A stretch of 64,000 nt of DNA from a phage: the sequence record PZ379176.1; one strand, given 5' to 3'. The translations under genes were made by a program, and so were the position numbers. Under the pieces are notes generated by a model. The model did no database searches. It was given only the letters and a program-made list of their open reading frames with translations, and was not told the origin of the DNA. Positions 10,552-59,038 of this stretch are shown here, piece after piece. Position 1 is the stretch's first letter, and every line of letters starts with the position of its first letter.

Positions 10552-10788
10552 ATGAAAGTTAATATTAAATCCGATCGTACAATGCTTCGCTTAAATAACA
10601 TGAAGCCGGGCGTTCTATTTGAGCGTAAAGACTCTCTTTATATTAGAACCGACACACTATACGCAGATAACTATGTGAACTGTGTTGATGTGGTAACTGG
10701 AAAGCTCATGCCTTTTAAACGGGATGAAGTCTGCCAAGTACGTAGTGATCTTCACATAACCAACATAGAGGCTAAAGATGAAGATTGA
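10552..10788 (+). CDS. small paralog-family protein (member 2)
   Basis: Same family pattern; tightly packed. Confidence 0.5.
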   Translation: MKVNIKSDRTMLRLNNMKPGVLFERKDSLYIRTDTLYADNYVNCVDVVTGKLMPFKRDEVCQVRSDLHITNIEAKDED

Positions 10789-11029
10789 TCTTGAGATGAA
10801 AGCTAAAGAATTGTGTGTGGGTGATTTGAAACTTGGTGATGTATTCCAAGTTAAGGCAACATGTATTGATTATTACATGATCGTTCAGTTATATACACCA
10901 CATGTGTCAGAGACTGATCTTCGGAATGGTTGTGTAGTGCTCAGTTTAAGCACCAATCAAGTAATGAAGCTAGATTCAAACTTACCTGTTTCAGTTATCC
11001 ATGATGCAGTAATTACCAATCGGAAGTGA
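10778..11029 (+). CDS. small paralog-family protein (member 3)
   Basis: LKLGDVFQVK motif. Confidence 0.5.
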   Translation: MKIDLEMKAKELCVGDLKLGDVFQVKATCIDYYMIVQLYTPHVSETDLRNGCVVLSLSTNQVMKLDSNLPVSVIHDAVITNRK

Positions 11030-11244
11030 ATATGAACATTGAAAAGAAGGTTGTTGACGAGGCTGTTCAGTTACGATCTCTTGAAACACATGATGTATTT
11101 GTGTGGGGAGGCAGTCTGTTTCAGAAATCTGCTTATGCTGTAGAGGGCGGGGTTCGTTGTTTTAATATCTTCAACAATGAGATGCAAATCCTTCCTAACT
11201 TCGCTCATGTTAATAAACTTATCCACCTTTCTATATATCAATAA
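11026..11244 (+). CDS. small paralog-family protein (member 4)
   Basis: LETHDVFVWGG motif; ATGA overlap. Confidence 0.5.
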   Translation: MNMNIEKKVVDEAVQLRSLETHDVFVWGGSLFQKSAYAVEGGVRCFNIFNNEMQILPNFAHVNKLIHLSIYQ

Positions 11245-11254
11245 GGGCAATTAG

Positions 11255-11473
11255 ATGGAAATTAAAGTAGTTGATTATCCTAAATATGCAAATGCAGAGG
11301 ACGTTAAAGGTGGTGATGTTTTCTCTTATGATAAACGTTTCTGGCTGATGCTAGAAGATAAAACCCCTGATGGTTTGTGTAAGGCTGCTAACTTGAGCAG
11401 TGGTTCTGTTGAAGTCTTCGGTCTATCAACCACTGTTATGCCACGACCTGATCTGTGTTTATCCCAAAAGTAA
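11255..11473 (+). CDS. small paralog-family protein (member 5)
   Basis: VKGGDVFSYDKRFWL motif. Confidence 0.5.
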   Translation: MEIKVVDYPKYANAEDVKGGDVFSYDKRFWLMLEDKTPDGLCKAANLSSGSVEVFGLSTTVMPRPDLCLSQK

Positions 11474-11831
11474 CACCGACTTATAGCCCTTGTGTTTATC
11501 AGAGGGCTATGTGAGGGTGTTCCTCATTAACTTATTAATTCAGGCATATGCCACACCGCTAGGGAGAGCTTGCTCGAACATCCGGTGTTAGACTAAAACC
11601 TGTTAATTTTCGAAAGACTTTCCGATATGTAGGGGTACGTATTGGTTTGGGATTCAGGAGACTTCCTAGGGGTAGGAAGTCTTCACCAGTTGGAATAAGA
11701 GATAGCTCTAGAACCTGAACTCTTAGGCAGAGAAGGTCGGCAATGAGTACGCGGTCAGAATTAGCCTCCTGACTAGGGCTATCCCTTATATCAACTGGCA
11801 ATAATGCCTCCACTAACAAAGAGAGATAGGT

Positions 11832-11972
11832 ATGAAAGTATCAACCAAACGTATGAACCGCCCTGAACGTATGGATGCAGTAGCTAATGGTGCTCTGAAA
11901 CTGGAAGGCTTTTGGATTCATGCAATGTCAGCCATCCGTAACAAGCAAGGTAATTGGACGTATAACAGTTAA
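11832..11972 (+). CDS. hypothetical small protein (46 aa)
   Basis: ATG with SD-like GAGAGATAGG; followed by a terminator; below ORF-track size cut-off. Confidence 0.3.
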   Translation: MKVSTKRMNRPERMDAVANGALKLEGFWIHAMSAIRNKQGNWTYNS

Positions 11973-11984
11973 CAAATAAAGAGA

Positions 11985-12014
11985 GGCTGCCTTCGGGCGG
12001 CCTTTGTTGTTTTA
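11985..12014 (+). terminator. rho-independent terminator
   Basis: GGCTGCC-ttcg-GGCGGCC then TTTGTTGTTTT; same type as 41053. Confidence 0.6.
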
Positions 12015-12057
12015 ATTAAGGGACAACTCTTACTTAAACTAACAAGAGGAAGCTAAA

Positions 12058-12234
12058 ATGTCTAAGCAAACAATCAAACATACGCAATCTGGTTACTCTT
12101 ATGTCAACTCTCCTTGCTGCGGTGCTCGTATTAATCTGGTTAAGGAAGAGGTTCGTATCGTTCAGCGTGGCGCTACTGTTGTTCGTTCATGCTGTGTCTG
12201 TGGTAATGATATTTTTATCAAAGGTAAAGTATGA
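12058..12234 (+). CDS. small zinc-ribbon-like protein (58 aa)
   Basis: SD AAGAGGAAG; Cys pairs CC...CCVC; ATGA overlap with next gene. Confidence 0.4.
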   Translation: MSKQTIKHTQSGYSYVNSPCCGARINLVKEEVRIVQRGATVVRSCCVCGNDIFIKGKV

Positions 12235-12455
12235 TTATCGTTCGCTCTGAGCCTAAAGATAACACTTTTGGTAGCCTCCGTAATGGTGATGTGTTCTCTC
12301 TAGAGATAGATGGGGATACAAAACCTCCTTTATATATGAAGGTTATGCACAGACATGCTATCTGTATAAATAATCCTGAAACAAGATTTACGTTTGACAG
12401 AAGTTGTCCTGTCAAATTTTATCAAGCTACCCTAAACGTTAGGAGAGTAGGATGA
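12231..12455 (+). CDS. small paralog-family protein (member 6)
   Basis: LRNGDVFSLE motif. Confidence 0.5.
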   Translation: MIIVRSEPKDNTFGSLRNGDVFSLEIDGDTKPPLYMKVMHRHAICINNPETRFTFDRSCPVKFYQATLNVRRVG

Positions 12456-12703
12456 AAAACTTCCAAGCTGCACCAATAACTAAAGTGATTGCAGTTAATG
12501 ATGTGATGATGGCTGTTCCTCTGAACACTCGTTATATTGCAATTGACAAGATGGGATATGTATGGGCTTGGAAGATCAAGCCTAGTTATAACGCACTGTT
12601 TGATGAGTTTGTTTGTACTGGTACTTACAGTCCTACATTCTTGGGTTTGTTTAGTGAGTTTGATGGTCAGTATAAAATCATCACACTCCCTGCTTGTGCT
12701 TGA
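12452..12703 (+). CDS. small hypothetical protein (possible divergent family member)
   Basis: ORF track; ATGA overlap. Confidence 0.45.
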   Translation: MKNFQAAPITKVIAVNDVMMAVPLNTRYIAIDKMGYVWAWKIKPSYNALFDEFVCTGTYSPTFLGLFSEFDGQYKIITLPACA

Positions 12704-12710
12704 GGTTATT

Positions 12711-12875
12711 ATGTTCAAGTGGTTTAAACGTTTCTTCCATCTCCATGATTGGGAGACAATAAAAGAAGTTCGTTTACACATATATAATGAGATTGGTCAA
12801 ATAGAAGACACAGGTACTCGTTATATACTTCGATGTAAAACATGTGGTCATATCACCAAGCGAGATATGATCTAA
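12711..12875 (+). CDS. hypothetical small protein (54 aa) with C-terminal CxxC
   Basis: ATG at 12711 after GAGG; track ORF 12537 starts in an overlapped frame. Confidence 0.35.
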   Translation: MFKWFKRFFHLHDWETIKEVRLHIYNEIGQIEDTGTRYILRCKTCGHITKRDMI

Positions 12876-12883
12876 ATAATTCT

Positions 12884-12959
12884 GCGCTCTTAGCTCAATG
12901 GATAGAGCAGTAGCCTTCTAAGCTATTGGTTACAGGTTCGAGTCCTGTAGGGCGCACCA
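12884..12959 (+). tRNA. tRNA-Arg (anticodon UCU), CCA encoded
   Basis: Manual cloverleaf: acceptor GCGCTCT/AGGGCGC, D-arm GCTC/GAGC, anticodon loop CTTCTAA, T-arm ACAGG-TTCGAGT-CCTGT, discriminator A + CCA. Confidence 0.85.
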
Positions 12960-13053
12960 CATTTAGGGCTAGTATGGGTGCGGCACCAGAGTTAGTGTAT
13001 CCCTGTTGAGGCAAGTGCTTTTATAACAGTGGGAATTACTTTCTTAGTGAGCT

Positions 13054-13080
13054 TCTGGTTCGATTCCAGATAGTCCACCA
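13054..13080 (+). other. tRNA-like T-arm plus 3-prime acceptor-like sequence without a foldable 5-prime half
   Basis: TCTGG-TTCGATT-CCAGA then TAGTCCACCA; no matching acceptor, D or anticodon arm found upstream. Confidence 0.25.
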
Positions 13081-13099
13081 AATCTAATAGGAGGTAATT

Positions 13100-13399
13100 A
13101 TGAGTTGGGGTGGTGTAATATCCTTAATCTGTATCTTCCTTGTCTGCATAGCCCTTACAGGCTGCGTACAGAGCCGTCCTGATGGATGGTGTGCAGTAGC
13201 AGTGGAAGGTGTTTGTGTTTCTCGCTGGTATAAGGGTGAGAAGATTCCTTCTGGTGAAATTGATATGCGATGGAACGGAGCAACCTGTTCTAATGCTAAC
13301 CCTTCTATCAACGAAGAGAAGTCTACGCCAGACAATGTTGTGATTGATACAGCGTTGTGGTGTGGTGGCTCTGTAACAACAACCGGTAAGGAGTGGTGA
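13100..13399 (+). CDS. predicted lipoprotein
   Basis: SD AGGAGG; signal peptide ending in lipobox-like LTGC (MSWGGVISLICIFLVCIALTGCVQS). Confidence 0.6.
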   Translation: MSWGGVISLICIFLVCIALTGCVQSRPDGWCAVAVEGVCVSRWYKGEKIPSGEIDMRWNGATCSNANPSINEEKSTPDNVVIDTALWCGGSVTTTGKEW

Positions 13400-13400
13400 T

Positions 13401-13598
13401 ATGAATTACACATCCACAAAGGTGTTAATTGATTCAATTAATAGCTCCTCAGAAGCTGTACAGGAGCGTTTAATACAAGATGTTAGCAATGACATTAAGT
13501 TCTTTGTTAAGAGCCGCCTGTTAGGTTCTAAGGCTTATTACAGAGCTAAAGCAGAGCTTACAAAGAGGGTGTTTCTTTTACATGGTTTGGTATATTAA
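13401..13598 (+). CDS. hypothetical small protein
   Basis: ORF track; starts 2 nt after previous stop. Confidence 0.4.
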   Translation: MNYTSTKVLIDSINSSSEAVQERLIQDVSNDIKFFVKSRLLGSKAYYRAKAELTKRVFLLHGLVY

Positions 13599-13607
13599 GG
13601 AACTTAT

Positions 13608-13829
13608 ATGAAACTAGACTCTAAGCAGTCACTTAAAACCGTTGAGCTGTCCACGCTGCCAAACGGAAGTATTTTTGGTCATGATAAACACTTCTGGATT
13701 AAAACAGACATCATAGACGATGGATATATCACCTGTGTCAATCTTTGGAACGGTTCAGTGGATGGTTATCGCCCTAGCGCAAAGGTAGTCCCTCAGCCTG
13801 ATGCTAAGGCTGTAGGTTTAGTTTACTAA
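13608..13829 (+). CDS. small paralog-family protein (member 7)
   Basis: LPNGSIFGHDKHFWI motif. Confidence 0.5.
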   Translation: MKLDSKQSLKTVELSTLPNGSIFGHDKHFWIKTDIIDDGYITCVNLWNGSVDGYRPSAKVVPQPDAKAVGLVY

Positions 13830-13838
13830 GGAGTTCAT

Positions 13839-14012
13839 ATGAGCTGTTATGGTGGCGGTGAAGTGTGTGATGACGACGACATGGAATCCAATGGTACATG
13901 CCCTGACTGTGGGTGTGAGACATTTGATGGAGTGTCAGTATACCCTGCCTGTAGTTACTCACCAGTGATCTGTAAAACATGTGGAGATCAACCTTGTGAC
14001 CAGTCTTGTTAG
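13839..14012 (+). CDS. small Cys-rich protein (57 aa)
   Basis: SD AAGGAG; 11 Cys; below ORF-track cut-off. Confidence 0.35.
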   Translation: MSCYGGGEVCDDDDMESNGTCPDCGCETFDGVSVYPACSYSPVICKTCGDQPCDQSC

Positions 14013-14013
14013 T

Positions 14014-14238
14014 ATGTTAATAGCCTATCTGATAGGATCAGTAGTATCAGGTGTTCTGATTAAGATTATAGATGTTAAAGGTAATCAGTGTTTCAGAGGT
14101 TGGGATGGTGAGCCAGACCTCGGAAAGATAGCAGCTATGGTTTTCTTGTGGCCTATTATTGCTGTACTATTTATAGCACTCGTATCATGGGCTGCTCTTT
14201 GGGATTTCATCCTTCCTAACAAAAAGTATGAGGACTAA
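14014..14238 (+). CDS. small membrane protein (two hydrophobic helices)
   Basis: ORF track frame; ATG at 14014. Confidence 0.45.
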   Translation: MLIAYLIGSVVSGVLIKIIDVKGNQCFRGWDGEPDLGKIAAMVFLWPIIAVLFIALVSWAALWDFILPNKKYED

Positions 14239-14728
14239 TGACTGAAGAATTTTTAAAGTGGTTTGGTGATACCTTCAAAGAGTATCTATTCTCTCCAGAA
14301 GACTTTGAAGAACTGAAAACCTACACTTGGTTGGCTTGGAGAGATAGCCGACGAGAGATGAATAAGTAATATCGTGAAGGATTCTTACGAGAGTCCTTTG
14401 AGATAGGACTTCAGATCTCCTATCAAACTAACATTCATGTAACTAGCCCATAAGGGCGTTACCCTTTAATAACCCAGCCCACTAAGGGGGCGGGAGTTTA
14501 GTGCTGGATTAGCATAACGCTTATTCCTACAAAGGCAACCGATTGTTAGGTCTTACATGCAATATTAATTAATAGGATAAGGGAGGATTCGTCCCCTCCC
14601 CTATTCATAAACTATTAGGAGAGTACATTAGCTGATTAGCTGTGGAAGGTAGGCCGATATCTACAGCGTGGCCCAGAGCTAGTGTACTCCCCAATAACTT
14701 TAGGGTAAATGTGGAACAACCTTTTAAT

Positions 14729-14874
14729 TACAGGTATAGCTTATGGGACTCAGTAATGCAGAGTCTACGGTAAAGCAGTCGCCCGTGGTCGAATGACCGT
14801 ATGCCCATTGGATGCATTCCTTTGGTGATGGCTAGGGAGTCCGAGCGTAGGTTCGAATCCTACACCTGTAACCA
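14729..14874 (+). tRNA. tRNA-like element with canonical T-arm and ACCA end but about 70 nt of extra internal sequence
   Basis: T-arm GTAGG-TTCGAAT-CCTAC (14847-14863), 3-prime ACCTGTA+A+CCA; only complementary 5-prime strand TACAGGT is at 14729-14735; anticodon not resolved. Confidence 0.35.
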
Positions 14875-14902
14875 AATTGAATAATAGCTAATTGGAGGAT
14901 GT

Positions 14903-15214
14903 ATGAAAGCACGAAGAACTATATGGACTCCGATGCAGATTGAAAATCTTCGGAGACTAATCAAAGAGTACTCGGTTCAAGAAGTTGCTCAGATTATGAA
15001 TGTAACGGAGAATGCAGTTAACGCAGCTTGTACTAAATTCGGAATATCAAGAGCTTCAATCCGAGTTAAATGGTCTGAAGAAGAAGACCAGTTCCTTATC
15101 CGTAATGCTGGGTTCATGTCTATTCAGAGAATGGCTGACATGCTCGGTAGAAGTTATGCTGCTGTACAGAACAGAGCATGTATGCACCTTAACATTAGCC
15201 TCAAACTTAAATAG
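14903..15214 (+). CDS. DNA-binding protein with two helix-turn-helix-like repeats
   Basis: Two W-x-E-E-[LD] repeats each followed by HTH-like segment. Confidence 0.45.
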   Translation: MKARRTIWTPMQIENLRRLIKEYSVQEVAQIMNVTENAVNAACTKFGISRASIRVKWSEEEDQFLIRNAGFMSIQRMADMLGRSYAAVQNRACMHLNISLKLK

Positions 15215-15222
15215 GAATCAAT

Positions 15223-15477
15223 ATGAAAGTTAACGAATTGAACAAAACTATCAAGACTGTGAAACTCCACACTCTGAAGAAGGGCGATACCTTCCGGCTG
15301 GAAGAGAACGGTCCAATTCATATGGTCTGTACTGCGGCATCTACTAATTGGGTAGAAGTTGCACGAGATCGAGTCGTGTGTGTCAGACTGGAAGATGGAC
15401 ACTTAAGTGGCCCCGTTGAGGGCATCTCTGTTATTCCTGTTAAGGTTGAAGCTAACGTTATTAAGGATTCTAAATGA
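15223..15477 (+). CDS. small paralog-family protein (member 8)
   Basis: LKKGDTFRLEENG motif. Confidence 0.5.
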   Translation: MKVNELNKTIKTVKLHTLKKGDTFRLEENGPIHMVCTAASTNWVEVARDRVVCVRLEDGHLSGPVEGISVIPVKVEANVIKDSK

Positions 15478-15725
15478 AGATTACCCACAAGAAAGAAGAA
15501 GTGACCACGATTGATCTCAACTCCCTCCCCAGCGGAGCAGTGTTTAAATTCCCTGAGAGTGCTACTCTCTATGTTAAAGGGTCTGTGTCTGAAAGTCCTA
15601 ATGTAACCGTTAACTCTGATCGAACAATTACTCTTCGTCTATCCGATGGTAACGTAACAGCACCTTCTATCTGGTGCCGAGTTGTTCCTGTATCAGCAGA
15701 ACTTTTGGTGGATAATACGCAATGA
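15474..15725 (+). CDS. small paralog-family protein (member 9)
   Basis: LPSGAVFKFPE motif; ATGA overlap. Confidence 0.5.
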   Translation: MKITHKKEEVTTIDLNSLPSGAVFKFPESATLYVKGSVSESPNVTVNSDRTITLRLSDGNVTAPSIWCRVVPVSAELLVDNTQ

Positions 15726-15967
15726 AAATCATCCCAAAGAAAAAGGATAATACGGTACGATTGGAAACAATCATTCCCGGAAACCCTTTCGTGGTTCAGA
15801 ACGGAAGTGCCTCTCCTCAGTATTACATGAGGGTTGAAAATGCTTCTGGTAACATCCGTATAGCCAGTGGTTGGGTTCCTGTGGTAAACCTTTCCACAGG
15901 TGTGTTATCTGTTAAAGGTCTTGATGATCAGGTAGAAATGATTCGTATGTCAGTGGTTCAGGAGTAG
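15722..15967 (+). CDS. small paralog-family protein (member 10)
   Basis: IPGNPFVVQNG motif; overlap. Confidence 0.5.
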   Translation: MKIIPKKKDNTVRLETIIPGNPFVVQNGSASPQYYMRVENASGNIRIASGWVPVVNLSTGVLSVKGLDDQVEMIRMSVVQE

Positions 15968-16221
15968 TGCATATGAGCATTATTAACATTAAAGTTAAAG
16001 ACAAAGAGGAAAAAATCCTCCGCGTCAGAGATCTAAATATGTCAGATGTGTTCACTCTCCAAGAGTGCCAAAATCAAAAGGTTTATATGATGACAGCTAA
16101 AAGCAGGGGTTGTCAACCTGCTGGAGCTGTTAACCTAGGCACTGGAGAACTACGTGTCATCTCTGGTGATATGGTTGTTGGTGAGAAGTTTATTAAGGCT
16201 GAAATCATCTTAACTTCGTAG
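15967..16221 (+). CDS. small paralog-family protein (member 11)
   Basis: LNMSDVFTLQE motif. Confidence 0.5.
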   Translation: MHMSIINIKVKDKEEKILRVRDLNMSDVFTLQECQNQKVYMMTAKSRGCQPAGAVNLGTGELRVISGDMVVGEKFIKAEIILTS

Positions 16222-43428: not shown

Positions 43429-43452
43429 AGCCACCTCCGGGTGGCTTTTTTC
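43429..43452 (+). terminator. rho-independent terminator
   Basis: AGCCACC-tccg-GGTGGCT then TTTTTT. Confidence 0.55.
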
Positions 43453-43464
43453 GTTGGAGACAAC

Positions 43465-43815
43465 ATGCAAAACACATTAAGTGATAACTTAGGGTTTATC
43501 GTTTTCTCAGCTCTTGTATTCTTTGGTGGTATGAAGTTTAACGAATATCAAACAGACAGCAGTAATCTGGACAAAGAGAAGCACCAGCAAGAGTTAGAGA
43601 TTGAAAGAAGTAGAGCAGCTGATGAAGTTGCTCAGAGAGTTCTTACCGGTTTATCTAACTGGAAGAAGAACACGGAAACCGTTTATAAAGAGATGCATTA
43701 TGAGAAAACTAAACCAGTTTTTTATAATGTCTGCGCTAGTGATGAGTATGTCAGCTTGTTCAACGAGCGACAACAGCAGGCAATCAATGCCCTTACCAAC
43801 AAACCTAAAAGCTGA
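43465..43815 (+). CDS. i-spanin (Rz-like)
   Basis: N-terminal TM helix then coiled-coil; contains the start of an out-of-frame lipoprotein ORF. Confidence 0.55.
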   Translation: MQNTLSDNLGFIVFSALVFFGGMKFNEYQTDSSNLDKEKHQQELEIERSRAADEVAQRVLTGLSNWKKNTETVYKEMHYEKTKPVFYNVCASDEYVSLFNERQQQAINALTNKPKS

Positions 43816-43959
43816 ATGTAGGGTTGACCTGCCTCTTTTAGAAAGTGCTCAAGGAAAAGCATTAGCCACTACGTTGGAGTGGTATCAGGACCAGTACACA
43901 GAATGTGCTGCCAATCACAATGGATTGTTAGAAGCTCTGAAAGAGCGTGGAATAGAATA

Positions 43960-43960
<1 letters not shown>
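43700..43960 (+). CDS. o-spanin (Rz1-like lipoprotein), overlapping the Rz 3-prime end
   Basis: Signal peptide ending SAC then Pro-rich mature region; begins inside the Rz ORF in another frame. Confidence 0.55.
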
Positions 43961-56970: not shown

Positions 56971-58002
56971 TTATAGTCCAGCAAAAACCTTAGCTGCATT
57001 TATTACAGGAACTGATAAATTAACTACAGTATCAGCTCCTAGGTCGTAATTTTGATCCCACTGAAACAGATATCTTCCATAGCCAGTTCCTATGCTAGAG
57101 CCACTCATTGTGTGAGATCTCATTTGCTGATATCTCCACCCACTACCTCGACCTTTTATTGCACCTATTCCAGAAGTAAGAGGTATCATAGGATATGCCA
57201 TACCAGTGTTGCCCCCTCCCGAACCAATAAAATTGTCTACAGTGAAAGGTGTTCTATTAGTAGAGAAGACACATTGAGTTGTCCCAGGAGAATATATGTT
57301 TAACCCACCATTATGCTCAGGAACACCAGCTCCGTTACAGAACACAGCGACTCTAACAAAGACAGAACCACCTTCGTTAGTGTTACCATTGACATAAGGC
57401 CTATTCTGATAGACTCGAATAACCCTATCATCAGATGTGTAAGATAAACCGATCCCTCCATCAGACCAATTAGCAAACACAACAGCATTGGTCATATTGA
57501 ACCCACCAATATTTGGTATCTGAAGGGAGTTGTTTATGGTCCCCTGCCAAGCCCAAATACATTGACCAACAACCCCACTATCAGAGATTGAGAAATAATC
57601 TGCTGTATTTGAGAAAGTGATTCCATAGTTTCTGTCAGCTCTAGGCCATATTTGGTATACGTTGAACCCACAGTCAAATAGTGGGTTACTACCGGGATTC
57701 TGGTTCAGAGTCACCCTAAAAGATGAGTTATTTTCTACATAGATGTTATTTACACAATAAACATCAGGGACTAAGTTAGGAGGGACTTCCCATTGCCAGC
57801 ATAGAGAACCAGTAGGAACAATAACTATCTGACCGCTACCATCCCATCCACTAATAGGGAAAGATCTCCCTGCTCCGTTAAAGTTAAAACTCCCTCTTAT
57901 ACTATTTTTGAACTGAGGGAAAGTGCTTCCACTGTCTATAAAAAGAGGGGCTGGTGTAGCTGGTCCCGGCCCTACTGGTTGTGTCCAAATTCCATATGCC
58001 AT
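56971..58002 (-). CDS. virion structural protein (343 aa)
   Basis: ORF track; Gly/Asn/Ser-rich; position in late block. Confidence 0.5.
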   Translation of the reverse strand: MAYGIWTQPVGPGPATPAPLFIDSGSTFPQFKNSIRGSFNFNGAGRSFPISGWDGSGQIVIVPTGSLCWQWEVPPNLVPDVYCVNNIYVENNSSFRVTLNQNPGSNPLFDCGFNVYQIWPRADRNYGITFSNTADYFSISDSGVVGQCIWAWQGTINNSLQIPNIGGFNMTNAVVFANWSDGGIGLSYTSDDRVIRVYQNRPYVNGNTNEGGSVFVRVAVFCNGAGVPEHNGGLNIYSPGTTQCVFSTNRTPFTVDNFIGSGGGNTGMAYPMIPLTSGIGAIKGRGSGWRYQQMRSHTMSGSSIGTGYGRYLFQWDQNYDLGADTVVNLSVPVINAAKVFAGL

Positions 58003-58003
58003 A

Positions 58004-59038
58004 TCACCAACTCCCTATCCTAATTCTCAGAGCACCACTTCCATCGTAGAAGTCTATCCTGTTTCCATTCATCCACAACTGTGCCCCACCTGTACCACCC
58101 ATAACAAAATCACCACCAACAGTAAGTCTCCAGTTAGAACCCCACATAGAACCAGCAGTAATCTTATCCGCTGATAAGTTCTGAATCTGAGCATTGGAGA
58201 TAGATACGTTATCAATCTGTGCCCATTGGATTCTAGCGTTAGCAATCTGGGCTGTTGTGATGTTGACGTTCTTTATGTCAGCGAATTCCATCCTAGCTCT
58301 ACCACCCTCAAACACAAAAGGTGTGTTACCAGAGTTGCCATCACCAACAATAAACTTGTTAGCTGTTACTTGGAATTGACTGTTTGTTCCGTTGTTAGTT
58401 AACTTGACCCCAGCATATCTTCCGTTTACTGTAGAGTTAACTCCCCATGTAGCTTCATACTCAGAAAGCTTCATATACTGAGAGAGGCTTCCGTTAATAT
58501 TTTGAATCTCTGTCTGAACTAAAGCAATCTCTTGACCTTGGTCGTTGACAATACCTTCTACCGTTTGAATCTTAGTTGTGTTACCCTCAATACTTGTTTT
58601 AAAGCCAGATACAGTGCTTTCTAATTTTACAGGAGGTTGAACAGAATTATCCCAAATATCTTCAGTGGAGAGATTCCCCATCTGTGTTTGGATATCGGCA
58701 ATAGCTGTCTCTATCTCTGTAGTAATTCTATTCTCAAGCTCATCAAATTGTAAGTTCATCGCATGAAGAGCTTTGATACGAACATCAATCTCATCGTGAA
58801 TCTCATCAATAGCTTGGAACATTTGGTTAGTAGCTGTGCTGACTTTCTGTAGCTCGTCATATACGGCTACGTTATATGTTTCTGTGTCCTGTACATTATT
58901 GAGAAACCCAACGTTGTACGGGAGTGTGGTGTTATTACGACCAGTGTTCTTACGAAAACCACCTGCACCCATAAGTTCCTCCAAAACAATAAAAGGGGCA
59001 CGAAGCCCCTTGTTGTTATCTCCGTCCGCCAACAGCAA
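58004..59038 (-). CDS. tail fibre or host-specificity-like protein (344 aa)
   Basis: Coiled-coil N-part then repetitive Asn/Gly/Thr-rich C-part. Confidence 0.45.
   Translation of the reverse strand: MLLADGDNNKGLRAPFIVLEELMGAGGFRKNTGRNNTTLPYNVGFLNNVQDTETYNVAVYDELQKVSTATNQMFQAIDEIHDEIDVRIKALHAMNLQFDELENRITTEIETAIADIQTQMGNLSTEDIWDNSVQPPVKLESTVSGFKTSIEGNTTKIQTVEGIVNDQGQEIALVQTEIQNINGSLSQYMKLSEYEATWGVNSTVNGRYAGVKLTNNGTNSQFQVTANKFIVGDGNSGNTPFVFEGGRARMEFADIKNVNITTAQIANARIQWAQIDNVSISNAQIQNLSADKITAGSMWGSNWRLTVGGDFVMGGTGGAQLWMNGNRIDFYDGSGALRIRIGSW

Follow-up and report, generated by a model that had tools for sequence, protein, structure and literature searches.

A small early-region lipoprotein of a phiEco32-like phage is a homolog of Rtp45 and a candidate LptDE-directed exclusion factor

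We analysed a 64,000-nucleotide stretch of phage DNA (sequence record PZ379176.1; the whole stretch is called the window below), in which an open reading frame (ORF) at 13100..13399 on the plus strand runs from an ATG start to a TGA stop and encodes a small predicted lipoprotein of 99 amino acids. A preliminary description of this DNA had suggested that the protein excludes superinfecting phages or masks a receptor. That idea gains support from homology to the exclusion lipoprotein Rtp45, from a putative DUF6453 partner protein encoded in the same genome and from a spanin pair that fills the lysis role elsewhere. By sequence, the lipoprotein is a full-length homolog of the Rtp45 family (Pfam PF24052). 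Homology and genomic context together lead us to give a probability of about 0.68 to the reading that it is an early outer-membrane lipoprotein which would clamp LptDE, the translocon for lipopolysaccharide (LPS), and block phages that depend on LptD, possibly its own phage among them.

The phage itself is, by sequence, a Kuravirus, i.e. a phiEco32-like phage of E. coli or Shigella in the subfamily Gordonclarkvirinae: the 12-15 kb stretch, taken as a 3-kb query, matches Shigella phage ShigP1 at 99.9% identity and numerous phiEco32-like Escherichia phages at 92-96%. The ortholog of the ORF in phiEco32 is gp106, annotated "putative phage lipoprotein" (the ShigP1 copy is a "hypothetical protein"). 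The gene has been annotated as a putative lipoprotein gene since the phiEco32 genome paper and the family PF24052 is known; what would be newly gained is a specific, testable function and a target.

Rtp45 is an exclusion lipoprotein of LptD-targeting siphophages, and its structure has been solved by electron cryomicroscopy on Shigella LptDE (PDB 9RPS). Bound between LptE and LptM on the periplasmic face of LptD, Rtp45 contains a disulfide between Cys30 and Cys38; its residues 30-35 pair with an LptD strand, a long hairpin rises through the LptD lumen, and extracellular loop 4 of LptD moves by as much as 20 Å, which prevents binding of the phage receptor-binding protein (10.1101/2025.07.07.663478). 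When the window lipoprotein was compared with all PDB chains using phmmer, the sole significant match was Rtp45 in this complex (9rps_D, E 1.3e-13, residues 6-66). The two proteins are 41% identical over 63 amino acids, with 19/35 identities in the core by hand count, and have in common the motif RPDGWCA...GVCV..W..G..P.GE.D.R..G. C31 and C39 of the window protein, both invariant, align with the Cys30-Cys38 disulfide pair, and the conserved core as a whole appears to be the counterpart of the Rtp45 disulfide, LptD-pairing strand and lumen hairpin. Identity to SE_Oeko of phage Oekolampad is about 37% over the N-terminal 49 amino acids, and Rtp45 and SE_Oeko are themselves only 33-35% identical; at the sequence level, the window lipoprotein is as close to Rtp45 as Rtp45 is to SE_Oeko. 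Additional matches of residues 64-98 to designed armadillo-repeat chains in the PDB are an artefact in which sub-threshold repeats of about 6 bits were summed and no stretch passes singly.

The predicted fold points the same way. An AlphaFold2 model built on 18 family sequences (mean predicted local distance difference test score, pLDDT, 74.6) was searched with Foldseek, and 9rps_D was the only meaningful match (probability 1.00, template-modelling (TM) score 0.77 on the target, 35% identity), the next one having an E of 3.4. The target of the family is known from work on siphoviruses: Oekolampad, which carries SE_Oeko, is experimentally LptD-dependent, as are the relatives of the Rtp locus, and the BASEL study tied the PF24052/DUF6453 type of locus to LptD with no exception.

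Taken feature by feature, the window protein has in common with Rtp45 and SE_Oeko (Bas18 gp26) the lipobox, the RPDGWC...G.C cysteine pair, the hairpin VP.GE.D.RY.G and a C-terminal ...T.GKEW strand; its predicted fold matches 9rps_D, and a DUF6453 homolog is encoded in the same genome. The differences lie in the setting and in one insertion. Rtp45 and SE_Oeko belong to siphoviruses and the window protein to a podovirus; their genes adjoin the DUF6453 gene, whereas the window gene follows a tRNA gene in the early region, with 44 kb between it and the DUF6453 gene; and the window protein has an uncharged signal peptide and an extra hypervariable loop of 26 residues with two more cysteines. Rtp45 is known from a solved complex, the window lipoprotein from sequence and predicted fold.

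The reading frame is well delimited at its start. The strong Shine-Dalgarno sequence noted before is indeed present as AGGAGGT at 13089..13095 (+), 4 nucleotides 5' of the ATG, and a longer N-terminus is ruled out because TAA and TAG codons stand in frame just upstream. The product reads MSWGGVISLICIFLVCIALTG|CVQSRPDGWCAVAVEGVCVSRWYKGEKIPSGEIDMRWNGATCSNANPSINEEKSTPDNVVIDTALWCGGSVTTTGKEW, where the bar separates the signal part from the mature part. Signal peptide and lipobox occupy 13100..13165 (+): residues 1-21 (MSWGGVISLICIFLVCIALTG) form a hydrophobic signal sequence with a hydrophobic core of 14 residues, and the lipobox LTGC of the preliminary description is found at L19-T20-G21-C22. Cys22 (codon 13163-13165) is predicted to carry the lipid and to begin the mature protein; G21 and C22 are invariant in 18/18 aligned family members. 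The +2 residue is Val, and under the Lol sorting rule Val at this position predicts outer-membrane sorting, so this destination is predicted here too. Among the 376 six-frame ORFs of at least 40 amino acids in the whole window, a lipoprotein-type N-terminus occurs in two, this one and the o-spanin.

The mature domain had been described as Cys- and Trp-rich with 75 residues; the richness stands, with five Cys (22, 31, 39, 63, 88) and five Trp (30, 43, 58, 87, 99), and the length from C22 to W99 is corrected to 78 amino acids. The conserved core at 13166..13285 (+), residues 23-62, contains RPDGWC31-AVAVEGV-C39 followed by the hairpin motif W..G..IPSGEIDMRWNG; in the 18-member alignment its invariant columns are R26, P27, G29, W30, C31, G37, C39, G46, G52, D55, R57 and G60. 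A conserved C-terminal strand, GGSVTTTGKEW at 13364..13396 (+), aligns with the C-termini of the Webervirus and Rtp45-type proteins (SGTVTTTGKEW and GSKEWN, respectively) and is not hydrophobic. The signal peptide (MSWGGVISLICIF..., 13100-13162, +) is free of Lys and Arg and nearly invariant in protein sequence across Kuraviruses; more distant PF24052 relatives carry ordinary MKK or MKR n-regions.

Several searches place the protein in a genuine family. PF24052 ("Phage lipoprotein family") is matched over its entire model (positions 1-80/80, 118.8 bits, E 1e-34, cutoff 27) and PHROG 4281 with an E of 9e-34. The same Pfam family takes in Rtp45 (128 bits), SE_Oeko, SH6 gp50 and the Webervirus lipoprotein, and the annotation of HK578_024 notes a similarity to the Rtp lipoprotein (Rtp45). 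With tblastn, matches were found in 387 phage records: about 90 were Kuravirus-like at 60% identity or more, and those outside Kuravirus belong to siphoviruses (Dhillonvirus, Tunavirus/Rtpvirus and Klebsiella Webervirus), where the matched genes encode small lipoproteins. When 1.84 billion representative proteins were searched exhaustively with a profile, 16 matches were returned, of which all genuine ones are lipoproteins of 73-109 amino acids; one, P0021 (1775 amino acids, 11 matched stretches), is a repetitive unrelated protein and was discarded as spurious. No component of a known defence system was recognised, PADLOC and NCBIfam giving no match. Selection was analysed on six orthologs because a scan of IMG/VR yielded 9 loci; in these six, the ratio of nonsynonymous to synonymous polymorphism (pN/pS) was 0.27 in the signal peptide, 0.30 in the core and 0.29 at the C-terminus. 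By this sequence measure the gene is under purifying selection outside the variable loop.

The second line of evidence is a putative partner. When Rtp44, the LptD-binding protein whose gene adjoins that of Rtp45, was used as a tblastn query against the window, a nearly full-length match appeared at 57903..57004 on the minus strand (E 7.7e-11), within a gene at 56971..58002 (-) for a protein of 343 amino acids. This protein is a homolog of SU10 gp19, Rtp44 and RBP_Oeko; it matches Pfam PF20051 (DUF6453) at 90.4 bits (cutoff 25, E 1.7e-25, positions 15-289/291), a domain against which Rtp44 and RBP_Oeko themselves score 1e-113 and 2e-121. Its sole sequence match in the PDB is 9rpt_C, RBP_Oeko in complex with LptDE (E 1.8e-10). 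The AlphaFold2 model (pLDDT 85.7, predicted TM score 0.87) again has 9rpt_C as its sole fold match in the PDB (E 1.6e-13, TM 0.82), followed by a chain at E 0.07 and TM < 0.1. We infer that the DUF6453 protein and the lipoprotein act together. Several records label the ortholog of SU10 gp19 a 'membrane protein'.

Directly upstream of the DUF6453 gene lies the gene of the tail needle, the homolog of SU10 gp18 (58004..59038, -; the likely start is the ATG at 58972, giving 322 amino acids as in the ShigP1 annotation), and in siphoviruses a J-like gene is likewise followed by the DUF6453 gene. SU10 gp18 is described as the needle in the SU10 structure paper (PMC9509320). The window needle combines a coiled coil with a Phage_Tail_Tip domain (Pfam PF09327, E 7.6e-27), and in blastp almost its whole length aligns with the C-terminal ~280 amino acids of the J-like proteins of T1, HK578, Rtp and SH6. 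Since it carries this domain and aligns with these C-termini, the podovirus needle and the tip of the siphovirus central fibre appear to be homologous. The C-terminal region of J-like proteins is thought to carry the separate receptor-binding proteins of Rtp44 type in small siphoviruses (BASEL study).

The two genes are also found together in other phages. In 9/9 siphovirus loci examined the lipoprotein gene adjoins the gene of the DUF6453 binding protein; in HK578, SH6 and Rtp it stands beside the rtp44-like gene, just past the J-like tail tip gene. Across the phage collection their taxonomic distributions match closely: each gene occurs in ~90-95 records of Gordonclarkvirinae and in 53-63 of Klebsiella phages, with the same minor groups besides. 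A divergent metagenomic relative on a 100-kb contig keeps the order nozzle, needle, DUF6453, transglycosylase and has a PF24052 lipoprotein in its early region. Salmonella phage 7-11 (NC_015938), which has 41 ORFs in common with phiEco32, keeps homologs of phiEco32 YP_001671763 ('putative structural protein') and YP_001671764 ('bacterial surface protein', a label also given to the SU10 nozzle gp17); the lipoprotein, the DUF6453 protein and the J-tip-like needle were all undetected in this phage, so that the three genes are missing together.

Adjacency of the pair is typical of the family but not universal, and it is not seen in the window. Klebsiella Weberviruses (e.g. vB_KpnS-VAC11) encode a full-length lipoprotein homolog with 38% identity and the same C-terminus, whose gene lies between the genes of a Holliday-junction resolvase and a Dam methylase, ~10 kb from the DUF6453 gene; they are a second lineage with the pair unlinked.

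If the lipoprotein works as Rtp45 does, its precursor would be exported, lipidated on Cys22 and cleaved, as the invariant lipobox indicates, and Val at +2 would direct it to the inner leaflet of the outer membrane. There it would attach to the LptDE(M) translocon from within the periplasm, with its N-terminal strand, stapled by the disulfide, lying against the wall of the LptD barrel and its conserved beta-hairpin entering the LptD lumen; extracellular loop 4 would be displaced and binding proteins of the Rtp44/DUF6453 type would be unable to dock. Expressed early, the lipoprotein would protect the infected cell from LptD-dependent phages (superinfection exclusion), and it would also spare progeny from adsorption to infected cells and debris, as has classically been argued for T5 Llp. 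The excluded set would certainly include LptD-dependent small siphoviruses with the same host. Further support comes from the absence of the lipoprotein from the 34 proteins found in SU10 particle preparations.

Exclusion may, as a hypothesis, also be homotypic, with LptD as the terminal receptor of this phage, because the Kuravirus has its own DUF6453 protein beside a J-tip-like needle; self-exclusion depends on the DUF6453 protein being the virion's receptor-binding protein for LptD, a role favoured by its homologies, by its synteny with the needle and by the phyletic pattern. Somewhat more tentatively than we would hold an even bet, we propose that Kuraviruses carry a dispersed three-part module for LptD recognition that came from small siphoviruses (needle, DUF6453 protein and lipoprotein), in which LptDE, as the terminal receptor, would set off formation of the nozzle and ejection of the DNA, and the lipoprotein would act as the homotypic exclusion factor. 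Kuraviruses are strictly O-antigen dependent, and a precedent for a podovirus that combines such dependence with LptD is the Pseudomonas phage DEV. This phage, through its gp54-55-56 fibre, uses the O-antigen first and then the exporter LptD as secondary receptor, which parallels what the Kuravirus gene set suggests; DEV is a member of the Schitoviridae with a different tail, and the abstract and outline of the DEV study mention no exclusion lipoprotein.

In the literature searched, we found no link of Kuravirus gp106-type lipoproteins to Rtp45 and no recognition of gp19-type proteins as Rtp44/RBP_Oeko homologs behind a J-tip-like needle. The possible new point is that LptD may be the terminal receptor of Kuraviruses; if true, LptDE would be identified as the terminal receptor of the Gordonclarkvirinae. 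These phages are often isolated on pathogenic E. coli and have been proposed for therapy. The presence of both halves of LptD recognition and exclusion in their genomes offers a concrete receptor candidate that is essential, conserved and hard to mutate, and it directs attention to SU10 gp19, a gene overlooked in structural and genomic work. From the pairing one would further expect Kuraviruses and LptD-dependent siphoviruses to exclude each other in cocktails, e.g. SU10 with SU57. Selection of ECOR57 with the Kuravirus SU10 alone gave SU57-resistant bacteria, and vice versa (PMC8953519); this cross-resistance is compatible with a shared receptor, and changes in LPS explain it equally well.

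Several observations weigh against an LptDE-directed exclusion function, or against its homotypic part. The published Kuravirus receptors are the O-antigen and a cell-surface target of the short fibres, and neither the lipoprotein gene nor the DUF6453 gene is discussed in the Kuravirus literature searched. The DUF6453 protein is just 22-25% identical to Rtp44 and RBP_Oeko, and because of this low identity its receptor specificity may have shifted. The 44 kb between the two genes differ from the adjacent pair of the siphoviruses, and the signal peptide starts with an n-region free of positive charge. The authors of the LptDE-Rtp45 study warn that predictions of these small proteins and of their LptD complexes are unreliable, their AF3 complex models having been wrong (10.1101/2025.07.07.663478). 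Against self-exclusion in particular, neither of two virion studies detected SU10 gp19: mass spectrometry of particle preparations covered gp16-18 and gp20-24 well but missed it, and neither the virion model of SU10 nor the accompanying text includes it. The description of phage YF01 likewise skips the gp19-type gene.

Co-variation between lipoprotein and DUF6453 alleles was also sought among Kuraviruses and not found: the window lipoprotein is 97% identical to that of DE5 and 75% to that of phiEco32, whereas the window DUF6453 protein is 62.5% identical to that of DE5 and 97.7% to that of phiEco32. This counts weakly against the LptDE reading, since siphoviruses mix subtypes too: phage vB_EcoD_SU57 (MT511058) has an Rtp45-type lipoprotein (74% identity to Rtp45) together with a DUF6453 protein of the SH6/Oekolampad type (68% and 43% identity). 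Such mixing is expected if both proteins interact with LptD and not with each other.

Four other explanations were weighed. The lipoprotein and its DUF6453 partner could use the same clamp mode on an outer-membrane beta-barrel other than LptD, a retargeting for which the divergence of the DUF6453 protein from Rtp44 and RBP_Oeko speaks, as do the extra Cys-bounded hypervariable loop, which the LptD-validated members are missing, and the known ability of small-siphovirus receptor modules to switch receptors through allele exchange. We consider it unlikely: all experimentally assigned PF24052/DUF6453 pairs target LptD, the strand after Cys30 and the hairpin, which are the parts of Rtp45 described as touching LptD, have the best conserved counterparts in the window protein, and modules for other receptors, such as the FhuA module of T1, use unrelated proteins. 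LptDE could also be bound for the sake of host takeover and not of exclusion, with the lipoprotein plugging the LptD lumen early in infection and thereby stopping the export of LPS and O-antigen, or weakening the outer membrane before lysis. The Rtp45 hairpin does protrude through the lumen, the position of the gene is in the early host-takeover region, a long way from the tail genes, and as Kuraviruses depend on the O-antigen a halted export could cut wasteful adsorption of progeny. This seems rather improbable, given that the LptDE-Rtp45 complex was obtained by co-overexpression in E. coli (10.1101/2025.07.07.663478) and that the tight linkage of the siphovirus family genes to the receptor-binding gene argues for a receptor-centred function.

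The remaining two alternatives would take the protein out of the LptDE setting altogether. An n-region without Lys or Arg is atypical of lipoprotein signals and breaks the old PROSITE side-rule, and the uncharged n-region here (MSWGG...) might accordingly serve as an uncleaved anchor, or the protein might have an unrelated role. We regard this absence of lipoprotein processing as quite improbable, for G21 and C22 are invariant in all 18 aligned members, most of which start with standard MKK or MKR n-regions, as further family representatives do, Rtp45 is a lipoprotein in the solved complex, and the hydrophobic core is long. The least plausible alternative, and one to which we give hardly any credence, is a lysis protein, i.e. 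an o-spanin or another lipoprotein that disrupts the outer membrane. Its small size, its lipobox and its several Cys do make the window protein resemble o-spanins of the Rz1 type, which are phage lipoproteins as well; its gene is outside the lysis cassette, however, being located within the early region at a distance of 50 kb from the holin and endolysin genes, and is neither next to an i-spanin gene nor embedded in one. The 65-amino-acid ORF downstream, read from its translation, has no obvious hydrophobic stretch, so that no i-spanin is its neighbour, and the protein itself has no C-terminal transmembrane domain and is not a u-spanin. A canonical overlapping spanin pair is found elsewhere in the window, at 43441-43960 (+), with the i-spanin at 43441-43815 and an o-spanin (lipobox MSAC) ending at 43960, and the phiEco32 group has been catalogued with a two-component spanin (PMC6139136). 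Identity as an o-spanin or u-spanin was rejected on these grounds. In the o-spanin frame, an upstream Met at 43700 (MRKLNQFFIMSALVMSMSAC...) gives a lipoprotein signal far superior to that from the shorter start annotated for ShigP1 (equivalent to 43787).

Two other phage-excluding lipoproteins, which the window protein would resemble in mode of action, were compared. Cor of T1, phi80, N15 and HK022 is a small lipoprotein encoded in the receptor-recognition locus of small siphoviruses and blocks FhuA. It resembles the window lipoprotein in the signal peptide only and the mature parts do not align; T1 Cor and the window lipoprotein gave no blastp match at E <= 10, with 17.7 bits Cor stays under the PF24052 cutoff of 27, and a Cor-like identity was rejected. 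T5 Llp is a small early lipoprotein of a lytic phage that binds the periplasmic face of the phage's own receptor and alters its extracellular loops, which keeps the binding protein from attaching (10.1101/2025.07.07.663478; Decker et al. 1994, as cited in PMC8948821). The target of Llp is FhuA, a TonB-dependent transporter, and it acts by long-range allostery, in contrast to the physical displacement of a loop by Rtp45 (10.1101/2025.07.07.663478). No relation to Llp was detected in permissive Pfam and PDB-wide phmmer searches (E <= 10), which gave PF24052, Rtp45 and spurious designed repeats, the Llp sequence itself not having been compared. The FhuA-Llp complex was presumably among the PDB chains searched.

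The region that sets the Kuravirus proteins apart from Rtp45 is a hypervariable loop at 13286..13363 (+), bounded by Cys63 and Cys88 and recognised as absent from Rtp45 in the alignments. Among Kuraviruses it occurs as three alleles that differ in length and sequence, giving proteins of 93, 99 and 108 amino acids. In the loop pS is 0.57 and pN 0.26, compared with 0.29 and 0.085 in the core; since divergence here is far above that of the rest of the protein, the sequences suggest that the loop is exchanged between lineages as a cassette. In the AlphaFold2 model, residues 71-76 and 79-82 have a pLDDT below 50, and the loop is flanked by long antiparallel strands (52-65 and 86-98); a disulfide between Cys63 and Cys88 probably closes its base. 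A loop resembling the longest allele is also present in family member P0019, which has a different, standard signal peptide.

The claim that the gene is embedded among early genes agrees with its surroundings. The neighbouring genes are small, encode small soluble early proteins and all run in the same direction on the same strand, and no convincing promoter or terminator was seen between the lipoprotein gene and its neighbours. The region is the counterpart of coding sequences 69-125 of SU10, which are assigned to the early class by homology to phiEco32 (PMC4281155; PMC8948821), an assignment that for the lipoprotein gene draws on secondary descriptions of phiEco32. An antisense ORF of 117 amino acids over the gene (13084..13437) is a mechanical reading frame and unsupported.

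The lipoprotein gene region is directly preceded by a tRNA-Arg(TCT) gene, and the 140-nucleotide spacer between the two (12960-13099, +) has features of its own. It is absent in phiEco32, and in 30 Kuravirus records it is 94-100% conserved and unannotated. It closes with a perfect T-arm, an acceptor strand and ACCA; pairing with this acceptor strand is possible for its 5' end. A second tRNA between tRNA-Arg and the lipoprotein ORF was rejected: Rfam gave no match at E <= 1, and ARAGORN called an intron-containing tRNA-Asn only at relaxed thresholds. The spacer is a tRNA gene that has decayed or been interrupted, or else a tRNA-like element.

Finally, at least eight small ORFs of 72-85 amino acids around the lipoprotein gene (~10778-16221, +) look mutually paralogous, being alike in length and sharing MK... 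at the N-terminus and a G(D/S)(V/I)F motif in the middle. Examples lie at 10778-11029, 11255-11473, 12231-12455 and 13608-13829, and in a further group at 15223-15477, 15474-15725, 15722-15967 and 15967-16221, all on the plus strand. One of these ORFs matches three different PHROGs, none of them with an assigned function.

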